Assembly: GCA_000993275.1 (NCBI GenBank)
Contig: LBVV01000009.1
Span: 2,897 to 66,896 of the forward strand
Reading direction: 5' to 3'
Source of the DNA: a candidate division CPR2 bacterium GW2011_GWC2_39_10
GTDB lineage: Bacteria > Patescibacteriota > CPR2
DNA: 64,000 bases
Position 1 is the first letter of the stretch. Each line of letters begins with the position of its first letter. A program made the translations under genes and the position numbers. This document shows positions 1,498 through 51,738 of this stretch, in pieces. The notes below the pieces were generated by a model, which searched no databases, was not told the DNA's origin, and was given only the letters and a program-made list of their open reading frames with translations.

Positions 1498-1722
1498 CTT
1501 TCGTCATTGCGAAGGAGCGAAGCGACTGCGGCAATCTCATGGGAACACGATTAATGTCTCAGCCAAAGGTTGATCCGCCCTGGAGCGAGACAGGTCTTGG
1601 GCGGAAAATGCCAAATTACAAATAAGAAATATCAAAAAAGTATTAAGAATTGGAATATAGAATTTAGAATATGGTTTTTCTGCTTTATGCCATATTCTTT
1701 ATTCTCGCAAGTATTTGTCATG

Positions 1723-1819
1723 TAACTGCTCACAATCGTCATTGCGAACGATCCGGCAGCCGCCGGAGAGTGCGGCAATCTTGTTTCAAGCAGAGGAGAT
1801 TGCTTCGTTTCACTCGCAT
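1723..1819. repeat. 97-bp dispersed repeat copy 1 (starts with TIR-like gtaactgctcacaatc)
   Basis: 96/97 identical to 6206-6302; a related partial motif sits at 1501-1538 (tcgtcattgcgaagga...tgcggcaatctc). Confidence 0.75.
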
Positions 1820-2132
1820 TTGTCATTTTCAGCGCTTTTTTGTTCAAAATTCCAAAAAATTGTCTTCATGGGAAGTATTTAAACTATCTAATCTAACCTA
1901 CATTGATCTATTAAAGTTTATTATTATGAAAATGTAATTTTTGAAGCTATAAATTTAGTACCTTAACAGTGCTTGATCATTGTGGTCTAAAACCTGCAGG
2001 TTTAGCGGGGCCAAGCTTTAGGAACTCGAGAAGAGTTCCTAAAGACAGCTCATTACATAAAAAAAGGGGGGCAAAAGAAGTCACTACAAAAGGAGCCATA
2101 GCTGGCTTCTTTTGTTATTTCTAACAAAATAC

Positions 2133-2256: not shown

Positions 2257-3438
2257 ATGGCAGAAAAATTTCAAAGAAATAAAACCCATGTCAATGTTGG
2301 TACAATTGGTCACGTTGACCATGGAAAAACCACACTTACTGCTGCTATTACCCACGTACTTGCTAAAAAGGGTCTAGCTAAAGCAGAGAAATACGAAGAT
2401 ATCGATAATGCCCCCGAAGAAAAAGAAAGAGGCATTACTATCGCAACTCATCACTCTGAATATGAATCAGAGAAAAGACATTATGCTCACGTGGATTGTC
2501 CGGGTCATGCCGACTATGTTAAAAACATGATTACCGGTGCAGCCCAAATGGACGGTGCTATTTTAGTTGTATCTGCGGCTGACGGGCCAATGCCTCAGAC
2601 CAGAGAGCATATTCTTTTAGCTCACCAAGTTGGTGTTCCACATATGGTTGTTTACATGAACAAAACCGATATGGTTGACGATCCAGAATTAATTGACTTG
2701 GTAGAAATGGAAATTAGAGAGCTTCTATCCAAATACGAATTTCCCGGTGATGACACCCCAATTATTAAAGGATCAGCCCTAAAGGCACTAGAGGGCGATA
2801 AAGACGCCGAACAGTCAATTCTGGACTTAATAGATGCCGTAGACTCTTTTATACCGGATCCAAAACGAGAAATCGACAAACCTTTCTTAATGGCAGTTGA
2901 AGATGTTTTCTCAATTAAAGGACGAGGTACAGTTGCTACCGGAAGAATTGAAAGGGGCAAAGTTAAGGTTAATGAAGAAGTTGAAATAGTAGGTATTCAC
3001 CCAACCAGAAAAACAGTTGTAACCGGCGTTGAAATGTTTAGAAAACTTTTAGACGAAGGTTTCGCCGGCGATAACGTTGGACTACTACTTCGAGGCGTTG
3101 AAAAAGACGACATCGAAAGAGGCCAGGTTGTTATCAAGCCGGGCTCTATTACTCCTCATACAGAATTTGACAGTGAAATATATATTCTAACCAAGGATGA
3201 AGGCGGACGACATACCCCTTTCTTCAAGGGTTACAAACCTCAGTTTTATATTAGAACAACTGACGTTACCGGTGAAGTTACTTTACCTTCAGGTGTAGAA
3301 ATGGTTATGCCTGGCGATACGGTTAAATTAGGAATTAAGTTAATTGCTCCAATTGCAATGGAAGATGGAATGAGATTTGCAATCCGCGAAGGTGGTCGAA
3401 CCGTAGGCGCCGGAGTAGTAACTAAGATCATAAAATAA
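2257..3438 (+). CDS. tuf: Elongation factor Tu
   Basis: [18 protein letters not shown] and NKTD GTPase motifs; 393 aa. Confidence 0.97.
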
Positions 3439-3995: not shown

Positions 3996-6068
3996 ATGTT
4001 TTCTAAAATAAAATCCGGTTTTAAGTCGCATAAAAAATTAGTTGTTATTCTATTTTCGTCTTTTTTAATTTTAGGGCTATCGGGCGGAATTTATTATTTT
4101 GACTATTTTAGAGATTCCATAAGTCCGAACATAATATCTAAAAAAAAACCTACTCCTACTCCAAAACTTGAACCATTAAAAGTATCGGATAACAATCTTA
4201 AAAAGTTTTCTTCCTGCAGCACCTTAACTAGCGTTTTTGAAAACAGAAAAAAAGAGCAGCAAAACAGACTTATGGAATTTGCTGCAACGGCACCCGCAGA
4301 TCCTCCGGGCAAGGGCGGCGGAGGCGGCGAATATTCTGAAACCAATGTTCAGGTTGAGGGTGTAGATGAGGGAGATATCGTTAAAACTGATGGTGATTAT
4401 ATTTACACTATTGTTAAAGAGAAGGCCATTAAAATTGTTAAGGCCTTGCCTGCTAACAATATTTCGCTGTCTTCAACTATTAATTTCCCCGACAATTATG
4501 CCGTAAAAGAGTTATTTTTAGATGGAAATAAGTTGGTTGCTCTTGGAAATTCAGCAATCAAAGCCCGGGGCATTACAAATGTGCCGGAATGGTATTCGGA
4601 TTATAATTTTAATGAGGTTTACACTTTTATTAAAATTTGGGATATTACTGATCGGAATAATCCTAATCTGGTTCGTGACCTGCAGTATCAGGGTAATTAT
4701 TCGACTTCCAGAAAAATTAGCAGCTCGGTTTATGTGGTTGTAAATACTGCTCCGGATTTTGAAATTATTAATAAAGACGCTAAGGCTGACCAATATATTC
4801 CCAAAATATCCACGTCTGTTGGATCTTCTCAGTATAAGCCGGCTTGCGAATGTCAGGACGTGCATTATCTCACTTCCTTAAATTCAAAAAAGGAAACCAC
4901 CGAGGCAGAAGATATTAGGAATTTAAAAGATAGCAATTTTGTTTCGGTGATTACTATTAAGGCTCAAGATGTAAGCGCAGATCCGGACAAAAAAGTGATT
5001 GTTGCAAGTACCGATAAGGCTTATGCCTCAGCTAAAAATCTTTATTTAGCAGAGCCGCAATATCCGGAATTAACGACAAATGGGACAGTTTCGAATTTAA
5101 TTCCGGATAGCAATAATACGGCTATTCATAAATTTGCCCTTTCGGCAGAAAGAACCGATTATTTATCAAGCACTATAGTTCCGGGCGAAGTCTTAAACAA
5201 ATACTCGATGGACGAATATAACGATCATCTTAGAATTGCAACCACCAAGGGCAATGTGTGGAACCAAACCACAAAATCAACAAACAATTTGTATGTTTTA
5301 GATAAAAACTTTAAATTAGTGGGCAAAATAGAAGGCTTGGCCGAAGGGGAACATATCTATTCGGCAAGATTTGTGGGAGAAAGAGGCTATCTGGTTACAT
5401 TTAAAAAAGTAGATCCTTTTTTCACCCTGGACCTTAAAGATCCGGCCAGTCCCAAAGTGGTCGGTCAATTAAAGATTCCGGGTTATAGCGATTATCTACA
5501 TCCGATAGACGAAAACCATATTATAGGCATCGGAAAAAACACCATTGAAGCACAGCAGGAGTTAGAAAGCGAGCGAAGGGTTGATTTTGCCTGGTATCAA
5601 GGAATAAAAATGGCAATATTTGATGTGACCGATTTTGCAAATCCAAAGGAAATGCATAAGGTTACCATAGGCGATAGGGGAACGGATTCTTACGCCTTAC
5701 ATGACCCCAAAGCTTTTCTTTACGATAAAAAGAAAAATTTATTAGTCATTCCAATTTTGCTTGCCGAAATGTCCGAGACTCAGAAAAAGCAAGCGGAAGA
5801 TTGGGAATACGGCGCCAATACTTATCAGGGATCTTATGTTTATAATGTAACCCTAGATGCGGGTTTCGAACTTAGGGGCAGGGTCACTCATTATTCGGAA
5901 AATCATTTTAAGGATATCGAAAATAACATGTCATATTATTATTACGGCGACGATAAATCTATAGCCAGATCTTTATATATTGGTGATAATCTTTATACCG
6001 TCTCCAATGGTAAAATTATGGTTAATAATCTATCCAATTTATCCAAACTAAAAGAACTAAGTCTATAG
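3996..6068 (+). CDS. Secreted/membrane-anchored beta-propeller domain protein (COG4880 / PF09826-like)
   Basis: N-terminal TM/signal; C-terminal region with DPFFTLDLKDPASPKVVGQLKIPGYSDYLHP, typical of the secreted beta-propeller family; inserted between rpsJ and rplC. Confidence 0.5.
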   Translation: MFSKIKSGFKSHKKLVVILFSSFLILGLSGGIYYFDYFRDSISPNIISKKKPTPTPKLEPLKVSDNNLKKFSSCSTLTSVFENRKKEQQNRLMEFAATAPADPPGKGGGGGEYSETNVQVEGVDEGDIVKTDGDYIYTIVKEKAIKIVKALPANNISLSSTINFPDNYAVKELFLDGNKLVALGNSAIKARGITNVPEWYSDYNFNEVYTFIKIWDITDRNNPNLVRDLQYQGNYSTSRKISSSVYVVVNTAPDFEIINKDAKADQYIPKISTSVGSSQYKPACECQDVHYLTSLNSKKETTEAEDIRNLKDSNFVSVITIKAQDVSADPDKKVIVASTDKAYASAKNLYLAEPQYPELTTNGTVSNLIPDSNNTAIHKFALSAERTDYLSSTIVPGEVLNKYSMDEYNDHLRIATTKGNVWNQTTKSTNNLYVLDKNFKLVGKIEGLAEGEHIYSARFVGERGYLVTFKKVDPFFTLDLKDPASPKVVGQLKIPGYSDYLHPIDENHIIGIGKNTIEAQQELESERRVDFAWYQGIKMAIFDVTDFANPKEMHKVTIGDRGTDSYALHDPKAFLYDKKKNLLVIPILLAEMSETQKKQAEDWEYGANTYQGSYVYNVTLDAGFELRGRVTHYSENHFKDIENNMSYYYYGDDKSIARSLYIGDNLYTVSNGKIMVNNLSNLSKLKELSL

Positions 6069-6205
6069 TAAAAAAACCGCCCCATCATGGGATAGTCTCT
6101 CTCATTTGAGTCTCAATTGGATTACTAAAATCTCCATCTAAATGACTTAAGGCTGGCAGGAAATCGGAAAGACAACTAAAAAAATGAGTGTAACCCAGGC
6201 CCTTT

Positions 6206-6302
6206 GTAACTGCTCATAATCGTCATTGCGAACGATCCGGCAGCCGCCGGAGAGTGCGGCAATCTTGTTTCAAGCAGAGGAGATTGCTTCGTTTCACTCG
6301 CA
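6206..6302. repeat. 97-bp dispersed repeat copy 2
   Basis: 96/97 identical to 1723-1819. Confidence 0.75.
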
Positions 6303-6400
6303 AAAAACTGCTTAAAATGTGCTAAAATTTAAAATCAAACAAAAATGCAACTTTACAATTAAATGAAAAATGTCAGCACTGATTTAGGAGGGGAATTAAA

Positions 6401-6766
6401 ATGAAAAGGTTGAATGATTTTAGTATCTATGCGAAATTGATTATTTTCGGAATAATGATTGAAATTTTAAGTTTATTTCTGCCGATGGTTTTTATTAAAT
6501 TATTGCCCTACGTATTGCCCAACATAGTAACTGTGTCGGAAATCCCATTTCCAGTTTTAATGATTCTCAATCTTCGGCCAACATTAGGCCATTATGGATT
6601 TATTTGCATCATGGCTGGATTAGATTATTACTTTTGGCGCAATAATAGCCCTGATGAAGAAAATGGACATTTATATCTATCAAGGCTAGTCATTAAGCAT
6701 TCCCCCGCATTGTTAATGGTTATTTACTCGATAGACTATTTCATTTTTACACGTTTTATTAATTGA
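6401..6766 (+). CDS. Hypothetical small membrane protein
   Basis: RBS aggagggg 7 nt upstream of ATG; hydrophobic helices; no recognisable family. Confidence 0.35.
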   Translation: MKRLNDFSIYAKLIIFGIMIEILSLFLPMVFIKLLPYVLPNIVTVSEIPFPVLMILNLRPTLGHYGFICIMAGLDYYFWRNNSPDEENGHLYLSRLVIKHSPALLMVIYSIDYFIFTRFIN

Positions 6767-6819
6767 TGAATGTCGGCACATTTCGCACTGGCAAGATAAC
6801 TGTTTTGAGGAGGTCTATT

Positions 6820-7341
6820 ATGAAAACTACAAGCAGTGGAATTATCGTTGCGCGGCATGTAATCGAGACGATTAAATTGGCACCGATTAGGATAGATCAT
6901 GATCTTGAGTTTGCGAGAATAATAGAGGGCTTATACGGCCACGATTCTGGCATCAACTACACCAATATCCCTGATTGCAACGCAGGAAAAAATGGCATCG
7001 AGGAGGCAAGCCTTTTTCTTGTCAGGCCCGTTCCTTATTGGCAGGTGTGGTTAACAGACAGGGTTTTGTCATTGCTTGATGAAGCAGGATTTGTCCAAGA
7101 AGAGTTTCCTACCCTGTTTTCGCTCATGGGTCATGCCGAAGAACTTTGCAAAGCACGTATTGATAACATCTCGGCTCTTGGTGAGCACTCTCGTTGGAGG
7201 CATTCCAACGGCAATATCTTTGCTCCGTTTATGTCGCTATACGCTGCTAAATTCGGTTATCCTGCATTTTGCGAATTCGAAAGTAAATTTATCGGGAGCA
7301 AATGGTCGGAAGATAATTGGCTTGTTGTCCGCCACAAGTAG
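6820..7341 (+). CDS. Hypothetical protein, visibly higher GC than its surroundings
   Basis: ORF 6763-7341; best start is ATG 6820 after gaggagg RBS; no family recognised. Confidence 0.4.
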   Translation: MKTTSSGIIVARHVIETIKLAPIRIDHDLEFARIIEGLYGHDSGINYTNIPDCNAGKNGIEEASLFLVRPVPYWQVWLTDRVLSLLDEAGFVQEEFPTLFSLMGHAEELCKARIDNISALGEHSRWRHSNGNIFAPFMSLYAAKFGYPAFCEFESKFIGSKWSEDNWLVVRHK

Positions 7342-15166: not shown

Positions 15167-15844
15167 ATGGCAGATTTTGTGAAGTCCGAAGAGAAATTAT
15201 ATGATGAAAGAGTCGTACAAATCGACCGAATCACCCGTGTAGTTGCCGGTGGCAGAAGGCTTAGATTTAGAGCAACCGTAGTGGTTGGAGACAAAAACGG
15301 CAGTGTTGGTGTTGGCATAGCTAAGGGTCGTGAGGTTGTTTTGGCAATTAACAAAGCTTCCCAAAAGGCTCGAAAAAGCATGGTTAAAGTTACCCTTAAA
15401 GGCACAACTATCCCTCATGAAGTCATGGTGAAATTCAGTGGCGCGAAAGTTTTTCTTAAACCCGCATCTAAGGGTACCGGTGTTATTGCCGGCGGAGCGG
15501 TACGCGCAGTGGTGGAGGTTGCCGGCATCCATGATATTTTAAGTAAAATGATTGGTTCTTCCAATAAAATCAATAATGTTTATGCAACTTTTGAAGCTCT
15601 AAAGCAATTAAAGGCAATAAACAATAAACAAGAAACAATAAACAAGAAAACAGAAAAGAAAATGGTAGAAAACCCTGTTAAGGAAGAAAATGAAATCGAA
15701 GAAAAGGCTGATGAAGCAGTAAAGGAAGAAATTGCTAAATCACCAAAAATAGAAAAAGAAAAAGCTGCCGAAGCGGTAAAAATTGAAAAAAAAGAAACTA
15801 AGGCAAAAAAAGATATTAAAGAAGTAAAAAAGAGTAGTAAATAA
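15167..15844 (+). CDS. rpsE: 30S ribosomal protein S5 with a long Lys/Glu-rich C-terminal tail
   Basis: S5 core ([11 protein letters not shown]) plus low-complexity tail. Confidence 0.93.
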
Positions 15845-16278
15845 TGAAGTTACACGAAATTACCCAAAAAGTTGGGAAAAAGTCAAAAAGAATTGGTCGC
15901 GGAATTGGTTCCGGGCGAGGCAAAACTGCCGGACGAGGAACAAAAGGTCAAAACTCCAGAACCGGAGGCGGAGTTAGGCCCGGCTTTGAAGGCGGACAGA
16001 CGCCTCTTATTAGGAGAATCCCCAAACTTAAAGGTTTTAAATCCAGAAATCCAAAAGCCAAAGTTATTAATTTGGATGATTTAAATAAATTAAGTGATGG
16101 CGCCAAGATTAATGACGGGACGCTGGTTGCATCCGGTCTGATTTTAAAGGGCCAAAAGTACAAGATATTGAACAGCGGCAATCTTGAAAAAAAATTGACC
16201 CTAGATACAGAAAGCGTTTCTAAAGAAGCCAAAAAAATTATTGATAAATCCACAAAAGAAGCCAAAAAAGCATCATAG
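15844..16278 (+). CDS. rplO: 50S ribosomal protein L15 (follows S5 directly, so no L30 gene)
   Basis: GRGIGSGRGKTAGRG motif. Confidence 0.93.
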   Translation: MKLHEITQKVGKKSKRIGRGIGSGRGKTAGRGTKGQNSRTGGGVRPGFEGGQTPLIRRIPKLKGFKSRNPKAKVINLDDLNKLSDGAKINDGTLVASGLILKGQKYKILNSGNLEKKLTLDTESVSKEAKKIIDKSTKEAKKAS

Positions 16279-21141: not shown

Positions 21142-21563
21142 AAACATACGTAACTAAACCGGCGGAAATAGTTAGAAAATGGTATTTGATTGACGGAAAC
21201 GATGTAGTTTTAGGACGTCTGTCAACAAATGTTGCCGATCTGCTTCGGGGTAAAAGAAAAGCTCATTTTTCCCCATCAGTTGATTGCGGCGACTTTGTAG
21301 TGGTTATTAATGCTTCTCAAATTAAAACCACCGGAAACAAAGAAGAAAAGAAAAAATATTACAGACATTCATGGTATCCGGGCGGGCTTAAAGAAGCAAC
21401 TTTAAGAGAAGTTAAAGCAAAAGACGACAGAATACCCTTATTTTTAGCGGTTAAGGGAATGCTGCCCAAAAATAAACTGCAAAATGAAATGTTAAAAAGG
21501 TTAAAAATATACTCTGGTAGCGACCATCCGCATACCCAGCAATTAGAAGAATACAAAGTATAA
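21138..21563 (+). CDS. rplM: 50S ribosomal protein L13
   Basis: MKTYVTKPAEIVRKWYLIDG. Confidence 0.93.
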   Translation: MKTYVTKPAEIVRKWYLIDGNDVVLGRLSTNVADLLRGKRKAHFSPSVDCGDFVVVINASQIKTTGNKEEKKKYYRHSWYPGGLKEATLREVKAKDDRIPLFLAVKGMLPKNKLQNEMLKRLKIYSGSDHPHTQQLEEYKV

Positions 21564-21624
21564 ATCAAAAGTCAAAATGCATAAAGAATTATATTCAAAA
21601 ATCACTATCTAAATACCCTTAACT

Positions 21625-21654
21625 GTCATTCCCGCGGAGGCGGGAATCCAGAAG
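21625..21654. repeat. Palindromic hairpin repeat (gtcattcccgcggaggcgggaatccagaag), family B
   Basis: Perfect inverted repeat attcccgc/gcgggaat; related copies elsewhere in the window. Confidence 0.6.
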
Positions 21655-21677
21655 CCTAAAATAGGCAATAAGGATTA

Positions 21678-22118
21678 GTGAAAGAAAAACCCCAAGAGGA
21701 GACATTAATGGTTGAAGAAAAAAAACAAGTCAAAAAACAATACTACTACGGCTTAGGAAGACGAAAAGAAGCTATTTCTAAAGTTAGGCTATATATTGGA
21801 AAAGGTGAATTTACTATAAACGGAAAGAAAATTGAAGAAATATTTAGTGCTTATTTAATTCAAAGACTAATTCAGCCCCTAAAGTTAACCGGAACAGAAA
21901 ATAAATTTGATATTTCTGTTGTTTCCTCAAGCGGAGGCAAAACCGGTCAAGCAGAAGCCACCAGGCTAGGAATTTCCAGAGCTCTAATAGAATTTAATCC
22001 GGAACTCAGGACCACTCTTAAAAAAGCCGGATTCTTAACCAGAGATCCAAGAGAAAAAGAAAGAAAGAAATACGGCCTAAAAAGAGCCAGAAAAGCACCA
22101 CAATTTGCAAAAAGATAA
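21678..22118 (+). CDS. rpsI: 30S ribosomal protein S9
   Basis: C-terminal GGKTGQAEA...KRARKAPQFAKR. Confidence 0.93.
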   Translation: MKEKPQEETLMVEEKKQVKKQYYYGLGRRKEAISKVRLYIGKGEFTINGKKIEEIFSAYLIQRLIQPLKLTGTENKFDISVVSSSGGKTGQAEATRLGISRALIEFNPELRTTLKKAGFLTRDPREKERKKYGLKRARKAPQFAKR

Positions 22119-22120
22119 AA

Positions 22121-22147
22121 AAAACCACTCGAAAGAGTGGTTTTTTA
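22121..22147 (+). terminator. Rho-independent terminator after rpsI, end of the ribosomal super-operon
   Basis: ccactc-gaaa-gagtgg plus tttttt. Confidence 0.7.
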
Positions 22148-22191
22148 GTAAACAGTTAATGGCAAGCAGAAACCACCCTCATTTTTGCTTT

Positions 22192-22246
22192 GTCAATCCG
22201 GACATTCCTTTAGAAAATACAATCAAGTGATCCGGAATCCAGAAAG
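22192..22246. repeat. Family B hairpin repeat (gtcaatccggacattc...gatccggaatccagaaag)
   Basis: ~80% identical to 25215-25264. Confidence 0.6.
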
Positions 22247-22283
22247 AAAAAAATATCAATCCTGTCCTTTTCTGAAGCAAAAA

Positions 22284-22448
22284 GTAACTGCTCACAATCC
22301 TGCATTTTATGTTCATATATTATATTAAACTATTTATGTCATACCAAACTTGATTTGGGATCCACTTGTTCAGTTAAATATCGAGCTTTCTGGATTCCGG
22401 ATCAAGTCCGGAATGACAAGAAAGGGGGGGGTGATTGTGAGCAGTTAC
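22284..22448. mobile_element. MITE-like element, 165 bp, with perfect 16-bp terminal inverted repeats
   Basis: gtaactgctcacaatc at 22284-22299 and gattgtgagcagttac at 22433-22448; the interior holds a family-B palindrome (gtcatacc...ggattccggatcaagtccggaatgacaag); the same TIR begins the 97-bp repeats at 1723 and 6206 and ends the copy at 39754-39769. Confidence 0.6.
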
Positions 22449-22798
22449 AGCAAAAAATATTGATTTTTGGCCATATTTATGATAAAATATAAAATCAATC
22501 AAAATGTAACTTTGCAAAAAAATAAAAAAAGTGGAATGAATTTAGGAGGGGATTCGGATGTAATTGAAATGGTATCTCGTTTTGTTTGCAAGTTTCGTTG
22601 TGTGCGGACTGTTTTATTGGTACATAAGAAAGATCAATAAGGTAAGGGCTTTAGAACTCTGGAGATTACAGATTACAGATTCTATTATGGAAAATGGACT
22701 TTCAACAGTAGAAATGGGGGAACGAGGCGCGTAGGTAGAAATCCAACTTGCTTAAGATGTGTAAATTGTTTATGATAATTTAGTAAATAGGAGCAAGA

Positions 22799-23188
22799 AT
22801 GGGCGATCTCTCAGTTGCAATTTTGATATGTTTAATAATAGTTATTCTGATTTATTCCATACCATATCGTATTGTGGGAGATGTAATTGGTTTTATTCCG
22901 CGACATGCGATATCAAACTATCCAGAAATAGCTAAGAAATATTTCGGCTCAGAAATCGCTAATTTAACCTCTATGATAGCCATCTCTGGTGGAATATTTA
23001 GGTATAAAACTAAAATAAAGCAAATTAAAAGTTTTCTAAATGATACAGACTGTTCTCAGGATCCAAGGCTTGTGAAACTTGTCAAAAGGCTTAATATTTT
23101 TTTAGTGATGCGAAAGATCTATTTTGGATTACTAATTATGTTAACTATTTATTTCTTTATTTTTCTTTATCTAACATCGATGAGATAG
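22799..23188 (+). CDS. Hypothetical small membrane protein
   Basis: ORF with hydrophobic helices only. Confidence 0.3.
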   Translation: MGDLSVAILICLIIVILIYSIPYRIVGDVIGFIPRHAISNYPEIAKKYFGSEIANLTSMIAISGGIFRYKTKIKQIKSFLNDTDCSQDPRLVKLVKRLNIFLVMRKIYFGLLIMLTIYFFIFLYLTSMR

Positions 23189-24103: not shown

Positions 24104-24133
24104 GATTCCCGATCGGGTCGGGAATGACGAAGG
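24104..24133. repeat. Family B hairpin repeat (gattcccgatcgggtcgggaatgacgaagg)
   Basis: Palindrome cccgatcggg flanked by the ggaatgac motif. Confidence 0.5.
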
Positions 24134-24205
24134 GAAAGCAGATTCCGGCTTTTATCTAAAGAGGGTAGGCACGTAAAGACTTGTTTATTGCTTATTGCTT
24201 TTTGT

Positions 24206-25126
24206 TTATTTTTTAACTAGTGGTAATGTACAGCATCTAAAGCCTGCTCCGGTTTTGGGGGCTTCGTCAAATTTTACCGGAATAATTTTTATGTTCATAT
24301 CAGTTAAAAGTTTAATTAATCTTGTTGCATTGTGCCGCATAATAATTGTGTTCGGGTCAATTACCAAAACGTTGGAAAATAGGGCGTCTTGTTCTTCCCT
24401 CGAGATATCAATTAACGCGTAATTATCTAAAATCTCTTGAGGAATTTCTTTTAAACCATTTTTATAAATCAGGGCCTTGCCAGCGACAATTGGGCCAAAA
24501 GTACAGTCTAGGTGCAGACATTCTTCGTCGTCTTCCGGTAGTTTCATGAATACGGGAATAACTTTATATTTGGTATCCCTTAAAGCATCTTTCAAAAAAT
24601 TTAAGCCTTCTTCAGTTGATCTTTGACCGATTCCACAAAAAACAAAACCTTTGTCCAAAATTATGTCGCCGCTTTCTAAAATTATCCCTTCGGGAATTCG
24701 AATAATTTTATCTTCAGGAATTAAATCCAAAATATCTTTTAAGGCTTCCCATTCCCGTTTACGGCTTATCTTTTTCATGTTGCAGATAAAAAACAAATCG
24801 CCGATAACAAAGGCAATGTCGCGGGGTGGAAGCTGGTCGCATACGCCGGTAGAACAGGGCAATGGAAGCAAGTGCCGAACGTGAACGCCTAAATCCTTCA
24901 AAACCAATTCTAAACCGTCAAATTCCTTTTTTAAACTTTCGGCCGTAGGTTTATCGTCAGAGAAATAATATTTTTTTTGAGTATTATTAACTATTTCCAA
25001 AGTTTTAGGGTCAGAAAGGAAATTATCCGGATAGCCAATTACCACATCCCTTAAAGTGTCCGTTTCATTCAAGCAATGGGGGATTAAGTTTTCTTTTTTA
25101 TTTTTAGTAATTATTTCTTCTTTCAT
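24206..25126 (-). CDS. Amidinotransferase-superfamily enzyme (arginine deiminase / DDAH-like)
   Basis: C-terminal GAGFRCCTLPL (catalytic Cys, compare ADI GGGPRCMSMPL) and HLDCTFGP His motif; 306 aa. Confidence 0.5.
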   Translation of the reverse strand: MKEEIITKNKKENLIPHCLNETDTLRDVVIGYPDNFLSDPKTLEIVNNTQKKYYFSDDKPTAESLKKEFDGLELVLKDLGVHVRHLLPLPCSTGVCDQLPPRDIAFVIGDLFFICNMKKISRKREWEALKDILDLIPEDKIIRIPEGIILESGDIILDKGFVFCGIGQRSTEEGLNFLKDALRDTKYKVIPVFMKLPEDDEECLHLDCTFGPIVAGKALIYKNGLKEIPQEILDNYALIDISREEQDALFSNVLVIDPNTIIMRHNATRLIKLLTDMNIKIIPVKFDEAPKTGAGFRCCTLPLVKK

Positions 25127-25214: not shown

Positions 25215-25415
25215 GTCATTCCGGACATTCATTTAAAAAGTACAATCATTTGATCCGGAATCCATTCTTTTTTAAAGTACTTTCTTTTCCACTTTTGGCA
25301 GCAAAAGTGGAGCAAAACTGCCGACACGCTACAAAATCGGATTAGCACATAAGGCTCATTCACTCTCAAAAAGTCGAACTCGTCGTGCATCTCGATTTTT
25401 CCGCTACAGTCGGAC
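25215..25415. repeat. Composite repeat: family B hairpin (25215-25264) plus family C element (25289-25415)
   Basis: Near-identical to 31405-31593 apart from indels; conserved blocks ccacttttggcagcaaaagtgg, aaactgccgaca, ctcaaaaagtcgaactcgtcg, cgctacagtcgga. Confidence 0.7.
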
Positions 25416-25484
25416 AAAAGAAGGGAAATTTGATTTAAAGGCAAAAATTATTTTTTTAATCAATTCTTTGCTATAATAACATTA

Positions 25485-31404: not shown

Positions 31405-31593
31405 GTCATTCCGGACTTGATCCGGAATCTATTATTTCTTTATTTCTATTTCCACTTTTGGCAGCAAAAGTGGAGCAAAACTGCCGACACGCTACAAAAT
31501 CGGATTAGCACATAAGGCTCATTCACTCTCAAAAAGTCGAACTCGTCATCTTCTCTTCGCCAAGTGCATCTCGATTTTTCCGCTACAGTCGGA
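31405..31593. repeat. Composite repeat: family B hairpin (31405-31429) plus family C element (31452-31593)
   Basis: Near-identical to 25215-25415, with an 18-bp insertion (atcttctcttcgccaagt). Confidence 0.7.
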
Positions 31594-31643
31594 GAAGAAT
31601 TATAGATATTGATATCGCAAATAGTATGGACTATTATTAATTT

Positions 31644-32351: not shown

Positions 32352-32444
32352 ATAACAATAAACAATTAACAAGGAACAAAAAACAAAAGCACAGTTTTAC
32401 GGATAAAATGTTTTTTGTTGATTGCACTTTGTTTTTTGGCTCGG

Positions 32445-33691: not shown

Positions 33692-34012
33692 GTGGTCATA
33701 AATAAGAAAGCCAAAGAAAGATTTTTAGCTTCGCGCTTGACTAAACTGGACTTACGCAAAATGGCACATCTATCCAAGCCGAAAACAAGTGAGATAAAAT
33801 CTCTTTTCTCTACTGGAAGCGTATTTGTAGATACGCTGACAGGAGAAAAAGGGATTTTAGCCACTTGGGGTGGTTTGGGAGGTGTGGTAGGTTTGCGTAA
33901 GTTCAGTAAAGCCATTTTAGAGTTATTATTTATACCAAGGGGAATAAATATTATGATAAGAATAATTAAAAAATTGGTCGGAGAAAAGCTTAAGGAATAT
34001 TTTTTTGTGTAA
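33692..34012 (+). CDS. Hypothetical small protein
   Basis: ORF followed by a terminator; no similarity recognised. Confidence 0.25.
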   Translation: MVINKKAKERFLASRLTKLDLRKMAHLSKPKTSEIKSLFSTGSVFVDTLTGEKGILATWGGLGGVVGLRKFSKAILELLFIPRGINIMIRIIKKLVGEKLKEYFFV

Positions 34013-39656: not shown

Positions 39657-39769
39657 GTCATTCCAAACTCGACTACAGAATCTAGGAAGAATGGATTCCT
39701 GGTCAAGCCTGCCTCGCTTTGCTCATCAAGGCGGGCCAGGAATGACAAGTTGGGATTGTGAGCAGTTAC
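39657..39769. repeat. Partial MITE copy ending in the right TIR gattgtgagcagttac
   Basis: gtcattcc...ggccaggaatgacaag palindromic body plus the same 16-bp TIR as 22433-22448. Confidence 0.55.
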
Positions 39770-40796
39770 AGTTATGTCTCTTGACTAAAATCGTTTGCTT
39801 GTGATCTTTAAGTTTGTTAAAATTGATGCTAGAGAGCGCAAAGGATGAAAAAACATTTTATTCACACAAAAAAAGCATTTGCGGTTATTTTAACTATATT
39901 CTTATTTTTATCCCTATTTTTCTTTGATGTTTCTAAAGTGACAGCGGCAGATCCGCCTTATTTTGTGTATCTTACTAATTTTAGCGTAGATGCAAAAATC
40001 GTCGGGCAGCCTTTTAATCTACAGATTCAAGCCTGGGATCCTAATAATATGGGCAACAATCCTATTCAGACAATGAATGGAACAATTTCGCTTCAAAACT
40101 CCACTTCTTCTATTTCTCCAAGCCAGGTTACTATGTCGGGGGGGGAGTGGATAGGACAGGTAACTATTACCAAATCTACGACAAGTGAAGTTATAACGGC
40201 CATGGCTACCGGTTTTGTGTCTTCATCTTCGCCGCAGTTTACTGTTTTGCCTGATAGTAGACAGGTAATACTGGGTGTTTATGGAGGGAATGTCCAATCT
40301 AAAACAGTAACGAACAGACTGGATAACTCTTTGCAAGTTAGAGCTATGGATAAATATGGTAATGCTATATCAAATGCCGGTATTTTATTTAAAAGCGTTG
40401 GTTTTCCGCCGGGTGCTAGCGGATATTCATTATCCTCCGGCAGCGTTTTGACGGATATAAATGGCATTGCTTCGACCCAATTTACTTTGGGCAACAAAAT
40501 AGGTACGTATATGGTTCAGGCCACTATTATTTCTGGCCTTTCGCCGCCGGTTACTTTTTATTCGAATGCAACAGCAGATGTCTTAAACAATCTTTTTATC
40601 TCACCAATTATTGCGGTTATACCCAAGGGAGCCCAACAGGTTTTTCAAACTACCGGAACCGATCGGCATGGCAATCCTGTTTCTGTTTCCGGAGTTGCGT
40701 GGTCGGTAGAAAGAGGCGGCGGTACCATTGATCAAAACGGTGTCCTGATCGAGGTCTTTTATCGCGATCTGCCGGGAAGCGACAAGGAGTTCCTCC

Positions 40797-51511: not shown

Positions 51512-51714
51512 CTTCTCTTTCTACTTTTTGGCAGCAAAAAGATAGCAAAAACTGCCGACAAAGCTACAAAATTGGGTTAGGACTGAGTCTTGTTCACTCT
51601 CAAAAAGTCGAACTCGTCGTAACCTCCTCAAACACAACTTTTTGAGATGTTCCCTGCGACATCCGACCTCAGCTTCGCCGAAGGCGAGACGGGAGTCCAC
51701 CACAATTTTTACGC
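51512..51714. repeat. Family C repeat, diverged copy with an internal insertion
   Basis: Shares ctttttggcagcaaaaag hairpin, aaactgccgaca, ctcaaaaagtcgaactcgtcg and cgctacagtcgga with 25289-25415. Confidence 0.6.
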
Positions 51715-51738
51715 TACAGTCGGAAAAAATGAAATATT

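Follow-up and report, generated by a model that had tools for sequence, protein, structure and literature searches.

A window of 64,000 nt from the candidate division CPR2 bacterium GW2011_GWC2_39_10 (contig LBVV01000009.1, positions 2,897 to 66,896) contains a ribosomal-protein and elongation-factor gene region in which several short repeats share a 16-bp end sequence. The most complete of them is a 165-bp element that follows rplM-rpsI. Genes and copies are arranged in the order fusA, a copy, tuf-rpsJ-beta-propeller gene, a second copy, and, further along, rplM-rpsI and the 165-bp element; all copies in the window are intergenic. No open reading frame (ORF) of at least 90 aa overlaps them, and no gene is called at these positions in public contigs. 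The EF-Tu, RpoA, and S9 proteins encoded in the window are identical to proteins of the CPR2 bacteria GW2011_GWC1_39_9 and GWC2_39_10 from Rifle aquifer groundwater, and RpoA of "bacterium CG2_30_37_16" from Crystal Geyser falls in the same 90% cluster as the RpoA of the window.

The original prediction, made from these letters alone, had described a hairpin-rich 165-bp element with perfect 16-bp terminal inverted repeats (TIRs), and this description was confirmed. The 16-mer GTAACTGCTCACAATC has five matches in the window, against 0.20 expected (0 of 100 shuffles reached five), and the element, folded as single-stranded DNA (ssDNA), has a minimum free energy of -29.6 kcal/mol (z = -6.1 relative to shuffles). 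Perfect 8-bp target site duplications (TSDs), which the prediction had missed, flank both the 165-bp element and the copy that starts at position 1722. The same TIR had been reported at the head of two 97-bp repeats, alike at 96 of 97 positions, with the first starting at 1723. That repeat in fact starts at 1722 and its TIR is exact, whereas the TIR of the second, at 6206, is one base off, and this base is the single difference between the two. Over 98 nt (1721-1818 and 6205-6302) the repeats are 99% identical, and their likeness ends at the element borders. A further TIR, reported to close a copy at 39754-39769, is an exact match on the minus strand. The palindrome gtcattcc...ggaatgac, attributed to all interiors, occurs literally only in the copy at 39657-39746; the 165-bp element has gtcatacc...ggaatgac, and the 97-bp copies have gtcattgc... 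and lack ggaatgac.

Short non-coding DNA transposons that keep only the TIRs recognised by a transposase supplied in trans are known as miniature inverted-repeat transposable elements (MITEs). The repeats of the window very probably belong to a family of such elements, whose cognate transposase is most likely a single-ORF enzyme of the IS66 family, ISBst12 group. The proposal that they form a non-autonomous transposable element family is thus borne out by the TIRs together with the 8-bp TSDs, by copy number, and by a cognate insertion sequence (IS), as described below.

Some features of the surrounding genes are recorded here in their own right. Three genes are inserted between rpsJ and rplC (3996-7341), two of them hypothetical and the third encoding a 690-aa beta-propeller protein (PF09826), and the truncated copy at 6206-6302 stands directly after the beta-propeller gene. 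No L30 gene separates S5 from L15, whose genes adjoin each other (15167-16278), as they do in the annotated Crystal Geyser relative (L185 1-950); L30 is reportedly absent in bacteria of the candidate phyla radiation (CPR), with which this arrangement is consistent. Low-complexity repeats of the AAACAATAAACAAGAAACAA type occur at gene 3' ends and in spacers (1421-1473, 15611-15663, 24180-24211, and 32352-32390), an example being the lysine/glutamine-rich C-terminal extension of S5.

Element families with common ends in CPR2 genomes

A metagenome scan for copies of the end sequence with GTCATTSC in the next 30 nt returned 32 loci. Those tested by exact protein look-up belong to the same CPR2 genome or genomes, except for L117, which comes from a second CPR2 species. 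Across the CPR2 loci the ends bracket discrete elements, as the prediction had expected of a transposable element, and these fall into at least two MITE families with common ends in the CPR2 genome, A (122 bp) and B (165 to 189 bp). The full family-A element is two-ended, with the structure GTAACTGCTCACAATC-GTCATTGCGAAC...CACTCGCAAAGACGCAG-GGTTGTGAGCAGTTAC, and folds at -36.6 kcal/mol (z = -7.5). Family A was found at 18 sites with unrelated flanks, with a median of 1 mismatch over the first 97 nt; in all, contigs of this genome other than that of the window contain at least 18 additional insertion sites. On sequence grounds, the 97-bp repeats of the window are truncated 122-bp two-ended MITEs and not a separate one-ended form. 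The 165-bp element aligns end to end with the 189-bp family-B copy in L121/L136 (L121 in the alignment; TSD TTAAAAAA) and with a copy in a CPR2 relative from Crystal Geyser (L062). Other subfamilies with common ends measure 114, 133-134, 144, and 153 bp. Interiors vary between families, and the ends are constant.

Of 19 distinct two-ended elements, 10 are flanked by octamers identical at 8/8 positions and 1 by octamers identical at 7/8, whereas none reached 7/8 or better when the flanks were shifted by 8, 16, or 24 nt. The duplicated sequences are 71% A+T. L117 of the second CPR2 species and L062 of the Crystal Geyser relative also have these ends with an 8-bp TSD (ATCAAATT and GCTTGTTA, respectively).

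When a genome collection was scanned with the bare 16-mer, the matches listed were mostly chance or unrelated conserved matches, including intergenic sites in Haemophilus, coding sequence in Prevotella, and the 5' regions of MATE transporter genes (L059, L067, L080, and L110). Useful among the listed matches were four related elements (L042, L062, L079, and L094) and one IS (L035); in three loci that share GTAACTGCTCACAATCCCTGCA (L017, L033, and L085), no transposase-sized ORF was evident. Seven matches to the end sequence were found in the viral contigs scanned, none of them in an element context, and Rfam returned nothing on the MITE, either for the window at the gathering threshold or for positions 21500-22900 at E<=1.

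A second MITE-like family was encountered in the window at 33742-33911. It is ~170 bp long, with inverted ends ACTGGACTTACGCAAA...TTTGCGTAAGTYCAGT and TA-like flanks, and copies 84-96% identical occur in other CPR2 loci (twice in L138, and in L121/L136 and L147). The element overlaps a mechanically called ORF (33692-34012) that has no Pfam match.

A probable cognate insertion sequence and the hairpin interiors

The IS match, L035, is a 1604-bp contig consisting almost entirely of one 1453-bp element bounded by GTAACTGCTCACAATC... and ...TTGTGAGCAGTTAC. A single 447-aa ORF fills the element, which has no tnpA/tnpB, and encodes an IS66-family transposase (Pfam DDE_Tnp_IS66, PF03050, E 1e-36). 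At E<=1e-30 this transposase has 670 homologues, mostly on contigs of ~1.5 kb, the pattern expected of a repeated IS. One homologue, P0134, is 93% identical to L035 and scores 209 bits against the NCBIfam model transpos_IS66 (NF033517; curated cut-off, 180); the ends of its IS are GTAACTACTCACAATTTTGA and TCAAAATTGTGAGCAGTTAC. The L035/P0134 clade comprises 1453-bp elements with ends GTAACTGCTCACAATC.../...ATTGTGAGCAGTTAC, and a perfect 8-bp TSD, ATTGTTTG, flanks the P0134-clade IS in L175/L177. The MITE termini are identical to the L035/P0134 IS ends over 14 to 19 nt, with the first 19 nt of the 165-bp element (GTAACTGCTCACAATCCTG) identical to one end of the L035 IS. The interior of the L035-type IS lacks hairpin modules, and the MITE interiors are not derived from the IS.

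An experimental reference point is ISDge4 of Deinococcus geothermalis, an IS66-family element of the ISBst12 group with a single 449-aa transposase, whose transposition has been observed and which has TIRs GTAACTGCTCAGCA and GTGACTACTCAGCA and an 8-bp direct repeat, CCTCGATG (PMC12898284, 2026). The window MITE termini start GTAACTGCTCA, with 12 of 14 positions matching ISDge4, and their TSD is also 8 bp. The 16-mer GTAACTGCTCACAATC, an IS66-type end with a GTAA start, agrees both with GTAACTGCTCAGCA of ISDge4 and with the P0134/L035 ends. Because their ends and footprint resemble those of ISDge4 and P0134/L035, the MITEs fit the ISBst12 group. A transposase of this group would bind the 14-16 bp termini, GTAACTGCTCACAA(TC), and insert the element at cuts staggered by 8 bp, which would yield the 8-bp target duplication.

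The interiors have relatives of a different kind. Hairpins of the form GTCATTSC...GSAATC make up the MITE interiors, and the window also has solo hairpins of this form at 1503, 21624, 22192, 24104, 25215, and 31405; GTCATWSC-type motifs are enriched in the window (18 versus 6.0 +/- 2.4). The module at 22393-22417 within the 165-bp element is identical to the reverse complement of the solo module at 31405-31429, and the solo module just upstream of the element (22192-22241) has an 88% identical copy at 25215-25264. Of the 28 positions of the Neisseria NTS consensus CGTCATTCCCGCGMAVGCGGGAATCYRG, 26 are matched by the solo hairpin between rplM and rpsI (2 mismatches, 0 such matches expected; the consensus was taken from PMC11893778). 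The small GIY-YIG nuclease SsnA recognises NTS and Ssn-related motifs in ssDNA and cuts a few nt 5' of the motif, and ssnA genes are typically flanked by the motif (PMC11893778). The CPR2 genome that carries the MITEs encodes a 94-aa, single-domain GIY-YIG protein (L130 1882-2166; Pfam GIY-YIG, E 2.8e-18; KKQ93544.1/KKR35560.1), whose gene has hairpins on both sides (GTCATTGCGAG...GCAATC, L130 1828-2203) in the layout described for ssnA; searches of the protein against PDB and NCBIfam gave generic GIY-YIG matches only. At a distance of 600 nt from this gene, a family-A MITE is inserted into another hairpin (TSD ATTGCGAA), so MITE and hairpin are separable entities. The most suitable reading of the MITE interiors is that of Ssn-type hairpins enclosed by IS66-type ends.

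The roles could in principle be reversed, with the hairpin, like those of repetitive extragenic palindromic sequences and bacterial interspersed mosaic elements (REP/BIME) or like NTS, as the spreading unit and the 16-mer merely part of the repeat; the movers would then be a GIY-YIG Ssn-like nuclease or a Y1 transposase of the IS200 or REP-associated (RAYT) type. A GTCATT/GTTATT hairpin does lie within ~40 nt inside 9 of 11 ends found with the bare 16-mer (window and listed genome-scan loci). The motif enrichment and the solo hairpins that occur without the 16-mer also speak for this explanation, as do the ssnA-like flanking (PMC11893778) of the 94-aa gene and a Y1_Tnp gene that the Crystal Geyser relative has close to its rpsI region. 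However, the TSDs abut the 16-mer exactly, a DDE IS without such hairpins in its interior has the 16-mer as its ends, different families combine constant ends with different interiors, and one MITE has itself inserted into a hairpin. HUH/Y1 transposases and GIY-YIG nucleases are not known to make 8-bp target duplications or to require TIRs. We regard the hairpin as a very improbable unit of spread.

Three further observations concern the hairpins and their neighbours. A hairpin similar to that between rplM and rpsI is present in the corresponding region of the Crystal Geyser relative (L185 7060-7090). The Y1 transposase gene of this relative, which is IS200-like (PF01797; L185 7971-8399), lies ~1 kb downstream of rpsI and is flanked by GC-rich hairpins. 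A conserved non-coding element has three copies in the window (25284-25420, 31447-31599, and 51518-51730), the first two identical over 99 nt and the third 62% identical; pairing in its 5' hairpin is kept through two double changes, and a variable insertion precedes a conserved 3' stem. Two of the three copies lie just downstream of a GTCATTCC hairpin, and the element has no Rfam match at E<=1.

Table 1. Positions of the repeats, their flanking duplications, hairpin modules, and adjoining promoter motifs in the window
Feature	Position	Strand	Remarks
16-mer GTAACTGCTCACAATC	1722-1737	+	exact
16-mer GTAACTGCTCACAATC	6206-6221	+	one mismatch, C->T
16-mer GTAACTGCTCACAATC, left TIR of 165-bp element	22284-22299	+	exact
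16-mer GTAACTGCTCACAATC, right TIR of 165-bp element	22433-22448	-	exact; left TIR reverse-complemented
16-mer GTAACTGCTCACAATC	39754-39769	-	exact
Complete family-B MITE, 165 bp	22284-22448	+	non-coding; perfect 16-bp TIRs
TSD of 165-bp element, left copy, AGCAAAAA	22276-22283		8 bp; read off the sequence, confirmed by script
TSD of 165-bp element, right copy, AGCAAAAA	22449-22456		8 bp; perfect match to left copy
Internal hairpin module GTCATACCAAACTTGATTTGGGATC of 165-bp element	22338-22362	+	NTS/SRM-like
Internal hairpin module GATTCCGGATCAAGTCCGGAATGAC of 165-bp element	22393-22417	-	adjoins right TIR
Sigma-70-like promoter TTGATT-17-TAAAAT	22460-22488	+	-35 starts 12 nt past the end of the 165-bp MITE
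Right-truncated family-A copy	1722-1818	+	lacks right 25 bp (positions 98-122 of the 122-bp element)
TSD of the 1722-1818 copy, TTTGTCAT	1714-1721 and 1819-1826		perfect, 8 bp
Second right-truncated family-A copy	6206-6302	+	TIR with one mismatch; no TSD
Partial family-B copy	39657-39769	+	left TIR lost; keeps long hairpin and right TIR (39754-39769)
TTGACT	39781-39786		starts 12 nt past the end of the 39657-39769 copy
Solo hairpin TGTCATTCCCGCGGAGGCGGGAATCCAG	21624-21651	+	between rplM and rpsI; Neisseria NTS consensus
Solo hairpin module GTCAATCCGGAC...ATCCGGAATCCA	22192-22241	+	just upstream of 165-bp MITE
Other solo modules	1503-1536; 24104-24128; 31405-31429

Insertion position relative to promoters

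Outward from the element ends, TTG occurs at positions 12-14 in 9 of 52 distinct MITE ends, compared with ~2 at other offsets. The promoter-like pattern TTGNNN-N16-18-TANNNT starts at +12 in 6 of these 52 ends, at +13 in 1, and at +14 in 2, where ~0.075 per offset are expected. The autonomous IS has the same register: 9 of its 24 distinct flanks have TTGACA(A), usually after C, with the first base exactly at +12 (counted from L175-L184, L148, L154, and L191). This common register of MITEs and IS is independent support for a transposase of this type moving the MITEs, though both the mover and its target selection are inferred. Insertion is non-random, and MITE and IS ends tend to lie 11 nt upstream of a sigma-70-type -35 hexamer. 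At that distance the duplicated octamer, which lies ~3 nt upstream of the hexamer, covers ~-46 to -39 and leaves the core promoter intact.

The register suggests that target selection by IS66/ISBst12-type elements is promoter-directed, or CTTGACAA-directed. No description of such a target choice by ISBst12 elements was found in the searchable literature, and promoter guidance would be a poorly known mechanism for an IS66-family transposase. A MITE inserted there takes the place of any sequence beyond -46, for example an UP element or an activator site, and may therefore rewire expression, including beside ribosomal-protein operons.

A fixed distance to promoters is also what would be seen if the 16-mer were a cis-regulatory protein-binding site, that is, conserved promoter architecture and not mobile DNA. 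Several copies lie 11 nt upstream of -35 hexamers, every window copy is intergenic, and in L042, a distant relative, the fusA-tuf spacer likewise contains the 16-mer, directly 5' of a TTGACA-18-TATAAT promoter. However, the sites come in inverted pairs at fixed spacing (122, 165, or 189 bp) flanked by duplicated octamers, they lie in both orientations to neighbouring genes, with the end at 1722 facing outward into the 3' end of fusA, and in unrelated organisms an IS with a transposase gene is bounded by the same sequence. Since the IS has the same register, target choice explains the distance to promoters, and a regulatory role in place of mobility is highly improbable.

Least credible is an origin of the copies by segmental duplication, gene conversion, or metagenome assembly artefacts at repeats. 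TSDs are indeed missing from some copies, elements stand at or close to the ends of several contigs, and assemblies of one population disagree on which copies are truncated and which full, part of which could be mis-assembly. However, the likeness of the 1722 and 6206 copies stops at their borders (98 nt), the 18 family-A sites have unrelated flanks, so that the single segmental duplication named as an alternative in the prediction fails, 10 contigs assembled independently carry the 165-bp element unchanged, and neither duplication nor mis-assembly explains the TSDs, which contradicts this explanation for the family as a whole.

Truncated copies, activity, and comparison with known elements

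Several findings nevertheless weigh against a MITE family mobilised by an IS66-type transposase. The metagenome sample is biased toward hairpin-bearing elements because GTCATTSC was required beside the end sequence, and 5 of 19 two-ended elements and most truncated copies have no recognisable TSD. The prediction had proposed a search for a cognate transposase. An IS with the same ends exists in other organisms, but tblastn with four clade members as queries found no IS66-type transposase in 354 kb of MITE-bearing DNA (the window and 290 kb of other loci, with some redundancy). The closest IS copies are binned to unrelated hosts (a Pacearchaeota metagenome-assembled genome, Acidobacteriota, and others); an IS with 58% identity is present in Crystal Geyser groundwater (L192). 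The comparison of insertion sites revealed neither an empty site nor an insertion polymorphism among the fetched loci, and the 165-bp copy is identical in 10/10 population contigs spanning its site, which come from different samples and assemblers. The region downstream of rpsI in the Crystal Geyser relative was considered as an empty site and rejected because it is not syntenic.

These results bear on the claim that the family is active or recently active. The near-identity of the copies argues for recent amplification, and this part of the claim is supported by the sequences. Of ongoing activity there is no proof: the fixed 165-bp copy and the lack of empty sites among the fetched loci speak against it, or at any rate not for it, and mobility is inferred from the structure of the elements.

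Truncated copies end at recurrent positions. Right-truncated family-A copies end at element positions 97-100 in at least 8 loci. At the 1722 site, the window copy lacks exactly the last 25 bp and keeps both TSD copies, and the orthologous site of a 99-100% identical strain (L143) has a full 122-bp copy with the same TSD. In L116, compared with its orthologue L124, positions 101-122 are missing together with 28 nt of flank, and L138, set against L140, is short of positions 1-26 and 8 nt of flank. The truncation junctions offer no convincing microhomology, which led to the rejection of slipped mispairing. From the published cut position of SsnA, a cut would fall at the junction of end and interior, inside every deleted interval. 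Ssn-mediated clipping is thus a candidate cause, offered as speculation, and assembly artefacts are also possible. As a separate observation, L143 lacks window positions 3247-3342, 96 nt inside tuf; the loss is in frame, covers 32 codons of EF-Tu domain 3, and is either a strain variant or an error in assembly of the contig.

A tentative and rather improbable proposal covers both the promoter register and the hairpin interiors. The transposase would read promoters, placing the IS or MITE end exactly 11 nt upstream of -35, with the octamer at the proximal UP-element position. The CPR2 MITEs would have captured recognition hairpins of the host GIY-YIG ssDNA nuclease (Ssn) directly inside each end, and the nuclease would cut the end/interior junction whenever the element is single-stranded. 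If this is true, clipping would explain the recurrent truncation positions (97-100, and 26 at the other end) with their variable flank loss, and it would be a host mechanism that disarms MITEs.

Among the known systems closest to the window elements are IS of the ISBst12 group. P0134/L035 share with them the ends, the 8-bp TSD, and the +12 register of the -35 hexamer. The window elements differ in being 97-189 bp long and non-coding; only the ends are common, and the interiors are hairpins. In small size, TIRs, TSDs, many intergenic copies, strong predicted hairpins, and position beside promoters, the family resembles other bacterial MITEs, such as the Correia elements of Neisseria, MITEAba12 of Acinetobacter, and RUP of Streptococcus. 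Correia and RUP elements duplicate TA, like IS630-like elements, whereas the ends of the CPR2 family are of IS66 type and its TSD measures 8 bp. The searchable literature yielded no MITE derived from IS66/ISBst12 and none from CPR bacteria, and a search of it for the end sequence itself gave chance matches only; as far as this literature shows, the family is new both for CPR and for the ISBst12 group. Genomes of CPR bacteria (Patescibacteria) are ~1 Mb in size and are usually described as poor in mobile DNA. The CPR2 genome carries dozens of near-identical MITEs with the ends of an IS group also found in unrelated groundwater organisms, a load that points to mobilisation in trans or a past invasion in a streamlined, episymbiont-type genome.

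Intergenic palindromic units also recall REP/BIME sequences and their RAYT (Y1) transposases, and the MITE copy inside a hairpin module in L130 recalls the insertion of IS1397/ISKpn1-type elements into REPs. REPs, however, lack TIRs and TSDs, and the CPR2 elements have both. The interior and solo hairpins, of GTCATTCC...GGAATC form, are closest to the NTS/dRS3 repeats of Neisseria and their nuclease SsnA, as is the presence in the CPR2 genome of a hairpin-flanked 94-aa GIY-YIG gene, putatively Ssn-like. Here, by contrast, the hairpins lie between transposon ends, and the description of SsnA mentions neither MITEs nor CPR (PMC11893778). The NTS/Ssn-type hairpins of CPR2 would extend the Ssn nuclease-repeat system, a recent discovery, to CPR and place its repeats inside transposons.

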